A DNA stretch of 57,465 nucleotides, taken from assembly GCA_011042725.1 (NCBI GenBank), contig DQWD01000338.1, positions 1-57,465 of the forward strand, in the 5' to 3' direction. A program made the position numbers and the translations under genes. Origin of the DNA: Candidatus Aminicenantes bacterium. GTDB taxonomy: Bacteria > Acidobacteriota > Aminicenantia > Aminicenantales > Aminicenantaceae. The notes beneath the pieces are model-generated. The model searched no databases. It was given only the letters and a program-made list of their open reading frames with translations, and was not told where the DNA came from. Below, one piece after another: positions 10,700 through 19,447 of the stretch; positions within the stretch are counted from its first letter, which is position 1, and each line of letters opens with the position of its first letter.

Positions 10700-12178
10700 C
10701 TACCTTCTCTTTTGGATTCCGGCTCGCTGTAAAGCCCGGTAGTAAAGACGCAGGTATTTCTTAGCGGGAATCTCCCATGAAAAGTTGAGTTGTGCACTTT
10801 GCCTAACAATCTTCTGCCATAAGGAAGGACGCCGGTAACACCTAATGGCCTCTCGCACTGTTCGAATTAGGGCCAAAGAGGTATGCTCTTGGAACACAAA
10901 GCCTGTGCCTTGTCCAGTTTGCGGATCAACATGGCGGACTGTTTCTTGTAACCCTCCTACGGTGCGGACGATCGGCACTGCTCCGTAACGAAAACCATAC
11001 AACTGATTTAAGCCACACGGCTCGGACCAGGAGGGAATCAAAAACATGTCTACTCCCGCCACTAATTTGTGGATAAGAGCTGGGCTCCAGTCAAATCGCA
11101 CTCCAAGTCGATGGGGATATTTCTTAACCATCGACAACAGCGCTTGCTCAAAAATTTCCTCCCCCTTACCAAGAATGGCCATCCCTAAGTCCAGCTTCAT
11201 CAACTCGTCCATTGCCTCTAAAAGTAAATCAATCCCTTTTCTCTCTGATAAATAAAAAGAAGTTCCTAATAAAGGAAGATTAGGCGGTAGATCAAGCTGA
11301 AATTCCTCTATCAAATCAAGTTTATTGCGCCTTTTTCCCTCTAAATCTCCTGGCTGATAATTCCAAGCAATGTACTTATCGTGGGCAGGATCCCAAAGCT
11401 CATAATCAATGCCATTGCGAATGCTGATCAACTCTTGGCGGCGGGTCTTTAAAATAGAGGCTAACCCATGACTATGCTTTTGGGTCCATAATTCTCTTCG
11501 ATAAGAACTGCTCACGGTGTTGAGCATATCGGCATAGACAATTCCCGCCTTTAAAAAATTAAAATGGCCATTAAGCGAAACCAGCCCACTCTGTAAATAT
11601 TTCCAGTTTAATCCGGTCAACGCTAAAGACTCGGGAGGAAACATCCCTTGGTAAGCAACATTATGTAAAGTCAACACTGTGGCTGTACGCTTAAATATTT
11701 TATAGCGATGGTATAACGTCTTGAGGAAAACCGGAACTAAGGCTGTTGACCAATTATTACAGTGAATAATGTCCACTGATTTATCCATCAATTTGATTGT
11801 TTCCAGCACTGCCTTAGAGAAAAAGATGAAGCGCTCATCATTATCTAAATAATCGCCCTTGCCCGATCCATAAATTTTTTCTCGCCAAAAATAACGAGGA
11901 TTATCAATTAAAAAAAGTGTAAACCGGCCCTCAGTGCTTCGCCATACTCGCCCCTTAACTACTCTTTCCCCTAAATAAACCGGGAGATGACTCACAATCA
12001 CTTCTTTTTCCAGGGACTCCAATTCGGGTTGGCGATAATAAGGCAGAAAAACCACAACTTCCACCCCAAGGGAGGCCAAATATTTGGGAAGAGCCGCAGC
12101 TACATCAGCTAGCTCTCCTGACTTGGCGTAGGGGGACAACTCAGGGGTTACGTAAGCAACTCGCAGTACTGCTGACAT
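10700..12178 (-). CDS. glgA: Glycogen/starch synthase homologue (GT5) with degenerate active-site motifs
   Basis: Overall GlgA architecture (LHNVAYQG, NFLKAG, IRNGIDY, EPCGLNQLY, VGGL). Canonical KTGG reads KSGE, HDW reads NNW and the SRL Arg reads Tyr. Confidence 0.85.
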   Translation of the reverse strand: MSAVLRVAYVTPELSPYAKSGELADVAAALPKYLASLGVEVVVFLPYYRQPELESLEKEVIVSHLPVYLGERVVKGRVWRSTEGRFTLFLIDNPRYFWREKIYGSGKGDYLDNDERFIFFSKAVLETIKLMDKSVDIIHCNNWSTALVPVFLKTLYHRYKIFKRTATVLTLHNVAYQGMFPPESLALTGLNWKYLQSGLVSLNGHFNFLKAGIVYADMLNTVSSSYRRELWTQKHSHGLASILKTRRQELISIRNGIDYELWDPAHDKYIAWNYQPGDLEGKRRNKLDLIEEFQLDLPPNLPLLGTSFYLSERKGIDLLLEAMDELMKLDLGMAILGKGEEIFEQALLSMVKKYPHRLGVRFDWSPALIHKLVAGVDMFLIPSWSEPCGLNQLYGFRYGAVPIVRTVGGLQETVRHVDPQTGQGTGFVFQEHTSLALIRTVREAIRCYRRPSLWQKIVRQSAQLNFSWEIPAKKYLRLYYRALQRAGIQKRR

Positions 12179-17002: not shown

Positions 17003-17317
17003 TTAAAAGGGAATATCATCTTCTCCTTGTTCTTCCTTCTTTTTTTCTAGGGAGGAGTCACCACGACCTTTATTTTCAATCAATTCTTGTCTCTTTTCCA
17101 CCTCAAAAGGGTGAGGCTTTAACTCTCCCTGGGTGTCTTTCAATAAAATCTCTACCTTTTTCTCGGCCTTTTCTAGCTCTTCCCTCAAGAATCTTGCTAG
17201 TTTAACTCCCTCCTCAAACAATCGCAAGCTTTCCTCAAGAGTTAACTCTTCGTTTTCTAACCGATCAACTATTTTTTCCAATTCCTCCAAGGCCTGTTCA
17301 AAGCTTAAATTCTTCAT
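17003..17317 (-). CDS. xseB: Exodeoxyribonuclease VII small subunit with acidic C-terminal extension ending DDIPF
   Basis: SFEQALEELEKIV..LE..L.LEESL..FEEG core; lies directly downstream of xseA. Confidence 0.95.
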   Translation of the reverse strand: MKNLSFEQALEELEKIVDRLENEELTLEESLRLFEEGVKLARFLREELEKAEKKVEILLKDTQGELKPHPFEVEKRQELIENKGRGDSSLEKKKEEQGEDDIPF

Positions 17318-18651
17318 TTTGACTCCTTAGAAAGCATAGATTCGATGGTTTTTAAGGCATCCACCTTTTGCACTAAACAAGATAGCTCCCCTCGATAAAA
17401 GCTAACTATAACTTCGTCCTTAACCAAAACATCACTGGCTTGACGAATTATTTGCCGCCCATCTTGTCGCCAACATAGGGCATATCCTTTGCGCAAAACA
17501 GAGAGAGGACTTACCCCATCAAGATGGGTGGCTATTTTTTCCCAAGTCGAGCTTAATTTGGACAATTTCTTCTGCATGGCATTGGCTATTTTTTCCCGGG
17601 CCAATCTAACTTGGGCTTGGCTCGCTTGAACATCTTGGAAAAGACTCACTATTCTTTCTTTGGCCTTCCCTTCTAAATCGTCGATCCTTTGTCCCCAGGT
17701 GAGGAGGCGCCATTTAAAATTCTGAAAAGCCCGATGTTGAATGCGCACCACAACCGCATGTCTTTGCTTCTCGAGTAAGTTCTCTATCCTTTGCCCCAGC
17801 CGCCGGAATAGGTTGTTTATCCTCTCTTCGAAAGCCTGCTCTTTCTCAATCAATACTTCCGCTGCTGCCGAAGGGGTAGAGGCTCTTAAGTCAGCCACAA
17901 AATCAGCAATGGTAAAGTCAATTTCATGACCAACCGCTGAGATTATAGGCACTGGACAGGCAAAAATGGCTCGGGCCACTATTTCCTCGTTAAACGCCCA
18001 AAGATCCTCAATAGAACCTCCTCCTCGACCGACAATGATGGCATCAATATTAGGAACCGCACTTAAGAACTGAATCCCTTCGACTATTTCCTCGGCCGCT
18101 CCTTCTCCCTGGACTCGCACCGGATAAATGATAATGTGAAGGCGGGCAAATCTCCTCTCTAAGGTCCGCAGAATGTCAACAATAGCCGCTCCATGAGGTG
18201 AAGTCACTACACCAACCTTCTTCGGCAACAGAGGAAGTTTTTTCTTCAACTCCGCAGCAAATAAACCTTCCTTTTTTAATTTCTCTTTTAATTGTTCAAA
18301 CGCTAGCTGGAGAGCTCCTTTGCCGCGGGGAATAACTTCTTCAACAATAATTTGGTATTCACCACGAGGCTCATACACCGAAATGGCTCCACGGCAAACA
18401 ACTTTCAACCCATCTTGGAGGGCAAAGGGAACCCGCTGGGCCGCTGAGCGAAACAAGACTGCCCGTAATTGGGCCTGGCTATCCTTGAGGGTAAAATAAA
18501 CATGACCAGAGTGGTAAGGTCGAAAATTCGAGATTTCCCCCTCTACCCATACCTCAGGAAAACGGTCCTCTAGTTCGCTCTTGATTAACTGGGTTAATTG
18601 CGAAACAGTCAGGACTCTTTGGCCTGACCTCTTATTTTGCAGTTGATCCAT
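17314..18651 (-). CDS. xseA: Exodeoxyribonuclease VII large subunit
   Basis: VWVEGEISN, SGHVYFTLKD, GRGGGSIEDLWAFNEE, SAVGHEIDFT and RASTPSAAAE motifs. Start moved to ATG 18651. Confidence 0.96.
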   Translation of the reverse strand: MDQLQNKRSGQRVLTVSQLTQLIKSELEDRFPEVWVEGEISNFRPYHSGHVYFTLKDSQAQLRAVLFRSAAQRVPFALQDGLKVVCRGAISVYEPRGEYQIIVEEVIPRGKGALQLAFEQLKEKLKKEGLFAAELKKKLPLLPKKVGVVTSPHGAAIVDILRTLERRFARLHIIIYPVRVQGEGAAEEIVEGIQFLSAVPNIDAIIVGRGGGSIEDLWAFNEEIVARAIFACPVPIISAVGHEIDFTIADFVADLRASTPSAAAEVLIEKEQAFEERINNLFRRLGQRIENLLEKQRHAVVVRIQHRAFQNFKWRLLTWGQRIDDLEGKAKERIVSLFQDVQASQAQVRLAREKIANAMQKKLSKLSSTWEKIATHLDGVSPLSVLRKGYALCWRQDGRQIIRQASDVLVKDEVIVSFYRGELSCLVQKVDALKTIESMLSKESK

Positions 18652-19447
18652 TTTCTTCCCCGATAATCTCTTGGCTAATCGCCAAAGCCCGTCCGGTGGC
18701 TGGATCAATCTCCACAAAAGCGGCCATTAACACTAGTTGGCCTTTGGCTGGCTCAAATCTCTGTGGTCGCCCGGAAATAAATCTTTGGAGGGCCTGTTCC
18801 CGCCGAACACCGATAATGGAATCATAAGCACCCACCATGCCCACATCCGTGATAAAGGCTGTCCCTTGAGGAAGAATTCGGGCATCCGCGGTGGGTACAT
18901 GGGTATGGGTTCCCAATACGGCCGAGACGCGGCCATCTAAATACCAACCAAGAGCTTGCTTCTCCGAAGTGGCTTCGGCATGAAAATCAACAATAATTAC
19001 TTTTGTTTTTTCCTTTAAAAGACTGATTTCTTCATCAGCTTTACGGAAGGGGCAATCTATGGGCTCCATAAACACTCGCCCTTGCAGATTAAGGACGCCT
19101 ATCCTCTGGCCGGCTCGATCCTCAATGATCCCTCCCCCTTGGCCAGGATTACCCGGTGGATAATTAGCCGGCCTTAGAAGCCGTTGATTCTTATCGAGGC
19201 GGGGGAAAATTTCTTTCTTATCCCAGATGTGATTACCCGAAGTGATAACATCTACGTGAGCAAATAACTCTTCGGCTATTTTTACCGTCAAGCCAACACC
19301 ACCAGCGGCATTTTCTCCGTTAGCTATAACCACGGTTGGCTTATATTTTTGCCAAAGAGAGGGTAAGAAGCGCCGCAAGGCTTGTCGACCAGGGCGCCCA
19401 ATTATATCCCCAACAAAAAGTAGTCTCACGTTATCTGGCATACTCAA
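18632..19447 (-). CDS. ymdB: TIGR00282/YmdB-family metallophosphoesterase (2',3'-cyclic nucleotide phosphodiesterase)
   Basis: [37 protein letters not shown] and TDVGM motifs; follows rny. Confidence 0.9.

Follow-up and report, generated by a model that had tools for sequence, protein, structure and literature searches.

Exonuclease VII (ExoVII) is encoded by two adjacent genes, xseA and xseB, within the window analysed here, a stretch of 57,465 nt of DNA from an uncultured sediment bacterium of the Aminicenantes. The assembly to which the window belongs amounts to 2.56 Mb in 365 contigs and is 89% complete. The xseB open reading frame comprises 104 codons and its translation reads MKNLSFEQ...KKKEEQGEDDIPF followed by a stop (full product, MKNLSFEQALEELEKIVDRLENEELTLEESLRLFEEGVKLARFLREELEKAEKKVEILLKDTQGELKPHPFEVEKRQELIENKGRGDSSLEKKKEEQGEDDIPF). 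Pfam profile PF02609 (Exonuc_VII_S) matched residues 6-57 of this protein along its entire length (profile positions 1-52 of 52), with an E value of 6.4e-20 and 71.4 bits for a cut-off of 24. This was the only Pfam match of XseB, and no OB-fold ssDNA-binding domain was found in it. XseB is a genuine exonuclease VII small subunit and not an SSB. A tblastn search of the genome returned a single xseB and no second, canonical copy of the gene. Read on the reverse complement, the 3′-end of xseB is GAA GAT GAT ATT CCC TTT TAA. The protein ends in ...EEQGEDDIPF and, as the DDIPF sequence directly precedes the TAA codon, the Phe carboxylate is free at the extreme C-terminus. The initial annotation had described an XseB core followed by a charged tail with DDIPF just before the stop, and both the PF02609 match and the codons GAT GAT ATT CCC TTT TAA bore this out.

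Table 1. Features of the xseA-xseB locus (positions in the window).
Feature	Position	Strand	Description and basis
xseA (exonuclease VII large subunit)	17314..18717	minus	OB fold, nuclease and helical stalk; Pfam
xseB (exonuclease VII small subunit)	17003..17317	minus	104 aa including the tail; ORF list, Pfam PF02609
XseB core, residues 1-59	17141..17317	minus	alpha-helical hairpin; AlphaFold2, Pfam, E. coli structure
XseB charged linker, residues 60-97	17027..17140	minus	probably disordered; low pLDDT, alignment of relatives
Internal H-P-F motif, XseB residues 69-71	17105-17113	minus	
XseB C-terminal tip, G-E-D-D-I-P-F	17006..17026	minus	SSB-Ct-type motif; sequence, comparison with SSB
xseB stop codon	17003-17005	minus	

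The xseA gene lies directly upstream of xseB and overlaps it by 4 nt; its true start is likely the ATG at 18651. XseA matched the OB-fold profiles PF13742/PF01336 and nearly the whole of PF02601 (positions 1-314 of 315, 305.9 bits). The N-terminal OB fold of XseA (18340-18543, minus strand) also gave a weak, sub-threshold match to RecJ_OB (E value of 4.5e-4), which was found in about 25 other genomes as well and is a sign of general OB-fold likeness only. The gene order around xseB is rny-ymdB-xseA-xseB-ispA-dxs-tlyA-nadK. Between positions 10700 and 23806 the minus strand is densely packed with genes in a Bacillus-like order (pheT-zapB/zapA-like-rny-ymdB-xseA-xseB-ispA-dxs-tlyA-nadK-glgA), several of which overlap.

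An AlphaFold2 model of XseB, built on an alignment of 33 relatives, placed two helices at residues 6-22 and 27-59, with pLDDT values mostly above 90 across the hairpin (residues 6-59). Beyond it, at residues 61-104, the mean pLDDT was 40-52 per 10-residue block, and the extension that follows the core is thus predicted to be probably disordered. The net charge from residue 61 to the C-terminus is -5. The structure of E. coli ExoVII offers a framework in which to place this extension. The E. coli enzyme is an XseA4.XseB24 spindle with six XseB per XseA stalk (PMC10835039; PDB 8TXR), and each XseB forms a helical hairpin packed on the stalk of XseA (PMC10835039). The last 12 residues of the E. 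coli XseB subunits are disordered and solvent-exposed (PMC10835039), which means that those tails are free. The Aminicenantes enzyme shares with this canonical ExoVII the same two genes, a full-length XseA with an OB fold, the XseB hairpin and a disordered XseB C-terminus. The difference resides in the end of the small subunit: E. coli XseB has 80 aa and finishes in ...TPFTPDNE, whereas Aminicenantes XseB adds about 30 residues and a predicted docking tip. The initial annotation had also assumed several XseB per OB-fold-containing XseA; the OB fold is supported by Pfam, while the copy number, which comes from E. coli ExoVII only, is plausible here.

The XseB tip resembles the C-terminus by which bacterial SSB is recognised (SSB-Ct), and we compared it with the SSB of the same genome. 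There is one SSB gene, located on contig C10, whose product of 155 residues ends in ...EETPSEDDDIPF (longer stretch, ...EELEEETPSEDDDIPF), that is, in ...PSEDDDIPF. The comparison with the SSB tail that had been suggested at annotation yielded a match, since the last five residues, DDIPF, are identical in XseB and SSB, and in the genus of the window the XseB tip is letter-identical to the SSB tip. The features of an SSB-Ct present in the XseB tip are the C-terminal position, the acidic run, the aliphatic residue, the Pro-Phe pair and a variable, disordered-like tether. A six-frame scan of the 2.56-Mb assembly, which took in every open frame with a minimum of 40-50 codons (about 25,000), located an acidic run plus IPF at the end of XseB and SSB alone; no other frame ended in an acidic run followed by [ILV]PF. 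We considered whether xseB had recently taken over the 3′-end of ssb and rejected this: the two tails lack extended nucleotide identity beyond the last codons, and therefore the xseB end is not a recent copy of that of ssb.

We then examined how far this ending is conserved. In a collection of 5.8 billion proteins, 115 of the 120 nearest homologues of XseB ended in P-F, mostly as D/E/N-L-P-F, and all the named sources among these 120 were Aminicenantes or Acidobacteriota. The alignment of 33 sequences showed a highly conserved hairpin, followed by a linker that is unalignable and variable in length, and then by a final P and F that are invariant; the internal EPF-type motif is also kept within the otherwise variable linker. 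An invariant P-F at the end of a freely varying linker is the pattern of a tethered short linear motif, which is the architecture of SSB itself.

A survey of species genomes drawn evenly and labelled by family and order kinship delimited the distribution of the PF ending. In the family of the window (f1) it was present in XseB of all 17 genomes, so that the conservation in close relatives on which the initial annotation had made its proposal depend holds in the family and also in most of the order, with 2/2 in f66, 7/7 in f67, 5/6 in f68, 2/4 in f65 and 3/24 in f64. The remaining families of the class, which belong to other orders, had XseB without the ending in f2 (0/4), f5 (0/3), f69 (0/6) and f70 (0/1), and in f4 the ending was partial and divergent (7/16, as ..DDPF), which ruled out a class-wide tip. 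The distribution is accordingly family-wide and mostly order-wide and, as judged from its recurrence, the XseB ending is far beyond chance. Two observations were made on the margins of this survey. A subgroup of f4, with genomes of 2.5-8 Mb (most of them of 5-8 Mb), carries a very divergent XseB ending in ..GQDDPF or ..GGDDPF; these ..DDPF ends combine an acidic run with PF and miss the aliphatic residue. In some other lineages of the same class, among them family f3 and genus g6, xseB was undetected in genomes that are 87-99% complete, three of them 98-99%.

The history of the tip was traced on a maximum-likelihood tree of XseA, in which the Aminicenantes proteins form one clade whose basal branches carry the XseB tip. 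Family f64 is probably Saccharicenantaceae, given that the named loci with the same tip-less tails come from Candidatus Saccharicenans. The nine Saccharicenantaceae XseA in the tree, all of them from tip-less genomes, group in a nested clade whose support is 100%. The tip changes state 3 times on this tree compared to a mean of 13 when the labels are shuffled. Basal lineages that bear the tip, a nested family that does not, and only 3 changes point to an early gain of the tip that was later followed by its loss. In f64, the genomes without the tip still have an XseB with an acidic extension about as long, and an SSB with its own normal tip. That this family lost most XseB tips yet kept both the acidic extension and the SSB tip indicates that the XseB tip is dispensable.

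If XseB merely copied the local SSB, the two tips would be expected to vary together. XseB and SSB tips were paired in 47 Aminicenantes species genomes, in 45 of which the SSB tip was readable. All 45 SSB tips read [D/E]-[D/E]-[V/I]-P-F, with V in 37 and I in 8. In the XseB of the tip-bearing clades (n = 37), the second-from-last residue was P in 37/37 and the last one F in 36/37, and the third-from-last position was occupied by L in 30, T in 3, I in 2, E in 1 and P in 1. The three residues before the aliphatic-P-F are mostly D, E or N, giving the consensus G-[DEK]-D-[ED]-[DE]-L-P-F. The fourth-from-last residue is D or E in every SSB, whereas D, E, S, N, P, A, V and K all occur there in XseB. 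No co-variation was found at the third-from-last position between XseB and SSB: among the 35 pairs in which both proteins end in PF, L in XseB faced V in SSB in 26 and I faced I in only 1. In the genome of the window, both proteins have I at this position. From these counts, XseB has a stable tip variant that does not follow SSB and is no copy of it, and the pairing lends no support to the SSB-Ct reading. The use of Leu in XseB where SSB has Val or Ile suggests a tuning to a subset of the pockets of SSB clients and not plain copying.

The small subunits of other bacteria put the Aminicenantes ending in context. E. coli-type XseB, and most other XseB, have 76-85 residues and stop a few residues after an internal [E/A/T]-P-F; an SSB-like end is absent from the E. 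coli type. This internal [E/A/T]-P-F near the end of XseB (sometimes D-F or P-L) is common across phyla, and the segment is disordered in the E. coli structure. The Aminicenantes XseB keeps the internal motif, as H-P-F in the protein studied here, and has in addition a tether that closes with another PF at the terminus. Of 63 XseB sampled from other classes of the phylum, 12 ended in PF; they belong to five families and have ends such as ..GPDDIPF, ..DEDDIPF, ..DDDVPF and ..DDSIPF. Searching 1.84 billion cluster representatives with a profile recovered 26,707 XseB-like proteins. Among the best 150 of these 26,707, 16 end in PF, including ..DFDDDDIPF and ..DDDDDDDIPF, and a Bryobacterales XseB within the same best 150 ends in ..TADQDIPF.

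Other endings were also recurrent. About 30 of the best 150 of the 26,707 XseB-like representatives finish in ..LF, with or without 1-2 further residues. In Omnitrophota, 22 of 30 XseB have at least 95 aa, and most of these consist of a Lys-rich linker, an acidic patch and an L-[F/L/I] end (for instance ..DDDLLF, ..EEGLF and ..EDEDLI); this tail, as far as its sequence goes, may be clamp-binding-like. The one Omnitrophota SSB that was checked ends in ..ESDLPF. A third kind of XseB tail occurs in Leptospirales/Spirochaetes, where the end is a conserved ..DEDLQG[ST]LL, whereas the SSB of the same genomes ends in ..FGDDDIPF. Since the XseB ends of these other phyla are unlike the local SSB tips checked, the receptor of XseB tails may, more generally, have nothing to do with SSB.

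Proteins known to read SSB tips were searched for in 48 Aminicenantes genomes. RecJ was present in 48/48 and PriA in 47/48, while the Zn-binding domain of RecQ (PF16124), the Pol III chi subunit (PF04364) and the C-terminal domain of ExoI (PF08411) were found in 0/48 each. From the partners that the initial annotation had named, PriA is consequently retained, and ExoI, RecQ and Pol III chi drop out. Among the 48, genomes with and without the tip were not told apart by the phylogenetic profile of the five clients; with RecQ, chi and ExoI absent everywhere and RecJ and PriA present essentially everywhere, it gives no lead to a partner. In Deinococcus radiodurans, the last four residues of the SSB-Ct (EDDLPF) occupy a hydrophobic pocket of RecJ, and an Asp-Lys salt bridge is formed (PMC4846377). 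The OB fold of RecJ was considered as the site of the SSB tip, which would have implicated the OB fold of XseA, and was rejected because the D. radiodurans tip sits on an extra C-terminal domain. In many Aminicenantes genomes, one contig carries both ssb and recJ at a distance of about 10 kb, a conserved neighbourhood.

Taking the tip as it stands, we propose that the XseB tail is an SSB-Ct-type docking peptide that would couple ExoVII to SSB-client proteins, a reading to which we give about an even chance. Under this proposal, the normally short and disordered C-terminus of XseB would have been lengthened into a charged, flexible tether with an SSB-Ct-type end. As several XseB pack on each XseA stalk, the enzyme would carry an array of tips, about 24 per holoenzyme if the E. 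coli architecture holds. The terminal Phe and its carboxylate would insert into the hydrophobic, basic-rimmed pockets that read SSB tails, and the clients in this lineage would be RecJ and PriA and probably others, for example RecO, RecG or DnaG. ExoVII could in this way be tethered to the machinery working on SSB-coated ssDNA at gaps, stalled forks and resection intermediates; another possibility is that the XseB tips compete with SSB for the SSB-processing machinery. Recruitment or titration of partners by the XseB tail, which the initial annotation had put forward, is purely inferred.

The analogy with SSB itself is close in design. In SSB, too, a folded N-terminal domain is followed by a variable linker and by an acidic-aliphatic-Pro-Phe end (...DFDDDIPF in E. 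coli, ...EDDLPF in D. radiodurans), and the display is also multivalent, with 4 tips per tetramer compared to probably about 24 per ExoVII. The carriers differ, an OB-fold ssDNA binder in the case of SSB and a helical-hairpin nuclease subunit here, and so do the tips, the XseB one having Leu for the Val/Ile of local SSB tails, a less strictly acidic fourth-from-last residue and client binding that is putative. The closest known precedent for a non-SSB replication enzyme with a docking acidic tail is the phage T7 gene 4 helicase-primase (gp4). The gp4 tail ends in Phe, like that of gp2.5 (the T7 SSB), and the same patches of the polymerase are used. It is to basic patches of T7 DNA polymerase that the acidic C-termini of gp4 bind (PMC12593628). 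The T7 protein differs from XseB in its family, its motif and its phage replisome setting, and its polymerase partner is known. Among exonucleases, ExoI and RecJ act on ssDNA and are linked to DNA coated with SSB by way of its tip (PMC3159472; PMC4846377). Both carry the pocket and read the tip, whereas the Aminicenantes ExoVII carries the tip, so that the polarity of the interaction would be reversed.

The same tail could instead act in cis. The acidic tether and terminal Phe would then fold back within ExoVII, for instance onto the groove where the XseA OB fold takes up ssDNA or onto the sequestered nuclease chamber, and, as a DNA mimic, would stabilise an auto-inhibited holoenzyme until real ssDNA displaces the tail. 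That the C-peptide of E. coli SSB occupies the ssDNA site on the OB domain of SSB itself (PMC3936761), that ExoVII has been proposed to be auto-inhibited and opened by its substrate (PMC10835039), and that XseA does have an OB fold are all consistent with such a role. So is the similar-length acidic extension kept by the tip-less family, from which the charge alone appears to be of some value, and the internal [E/A/T]-P-F that XseB has everywhere, of which the terminal PF could be a second copy acting within the complex. We nevertheless regard regulation in cis as unlikely: a DNA mimic has no need of an invariant Pro-Phe at the carboxyl end, and the acidic tails of tip-less relatives end in many different residues; the motif matches, feature for feature, an SSB tip that acts in trans; and in the E. 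coli structure the XseB C-termini are disordered, with none docked on XseA (PMC10835039). At the other extreme, the tail might have no function at all and be either a neutral stretch of low complexity or an artefact of annotation or assembly. The linker is indeed of low complexity and highly variable, and one family lost the tip while keeping xseB. The same in-frame ending, however, occurs in more than 100 independent assemblies, its terminal Pro-Phe is invariant across an XseA divergence of more than 1 substitution per site, and it turns up independently in further families of the phylum. Neutrality is contradicted by these conservation data and we consider it highly improbable.

The mismatch between Leu in XseB and Val or Ile in SSB is the main reason why our estimate for the SSB-Ct reading stays at about one half, and it leads to the question of whether the tip could dock on a different partner or hub, such as the beta sliding clamp or a lineage-specific protein, with a likeness to SSB that is convergent. 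XseB tails would in that case be a general attachment place for the short hydrophobic C-terminal motifs of each lineage. Besides the L-P-F found in XseB of genomes whose SSB has V-P-F or I-P-F, the endings of other phyla fit this idea: the acidic-L-[F/L/I] ends of Omnitrophota, next to an SSB that ends in DLPF in the one case checked, the DLQGSLL of spirochaetes as opposed to the DDDIPF of their SSB, and the ..LF or LF plus 1-2 residues of some 30 of the best 150 XseB-like representatives. The ..LF ends recall C-terminal clamp-binding motifs, for example QLxLF. The consensus of beta-clamp motifs is QL[SD]LF or QLxLxL; no such motif was found in the XseB tip consensus, which has no Gln and no hydrophobic second position and in which Pro is invariant, so that it fits QL[SD]LF poorly. 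The tip is, moreover, identical letter by letter to that of SSB in the genus of the window, and XseB tips such as DFDDDDIPF and DDDDDDDIPF elsewhere are unmistakably SSB-like. A cell that reads SSB tips would also be expected to see 24 exposed xLPF carboxyl ends. We therefore judge a different partner to be quite unlikely for the Aminicenantes tip. The preference for Leu is compatible with the SSB-Ct reading, as x-L-P-F is native to the SSB of D. radiodurans and a proven ligand there.

A broader version of the docking proposal would accommodate all of these endings. The ExoVII stalk could be a general, evolvable display scaffold that presents lineage-specific hub-docking peptides on about 24 XseB ends. 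Aminicenantes, like several further families of the phylum, would present x[ILV]PF, Omnitrophota an acidic-L-[F/L/I] end and spirochaetes DLQGSLL. The Aminicenantes enzyme would then be a ‘pseudo-SSB filament’ by which SSB clients would be gathered or sequestered, deciding where and when ExoVII acts. We hold this generalisation to be possible but rather doubtful; if true, it would answer how ExoVII is targeted to its substrates.

How ExoVII finds these substrates, namely ssDNA ends, mismatch-repair tracts and trapped topoisomerase-DNA adducts, is not understood, and all that can be seen in the E. coli structure is an auto-inhibited spindle whose 24 XseB tails are free and have no known use. 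With a conserved peptide of SSB type on those tails, the recruitment of ExoVII would gain a concrete handle that is cheap to test. PF-ended XseB is found again in five families from other classes and in part of another order, and f64 has lost most of its tips; these cases supply natural comparisons for the search of a partner. A full-text search of the literature found nothing that links XseB or ExoVII to an SSB-type tail and, to our knowledge, the Aminicenantes ExoVII would be the first cellular non-SSB enzyme that displays an SSB tip instead of reading it. If so, the concept of the SSB interactome would widen, with a bearing on inhibitors aimed at the pockets that bind SSB tips.

A minor observation emerged from the XseA tree. 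Many metagenome-assembled genomes deposited as ‘uncultured Eubacteriales bacterium’ and one deposited as ‘Candidatus Desulfaltia’ carry an xseA-xseB pair of the Aminicenantes type, and their XseA fall inside the Aminicenantes clade; these taxonomic labels are probably wrong.
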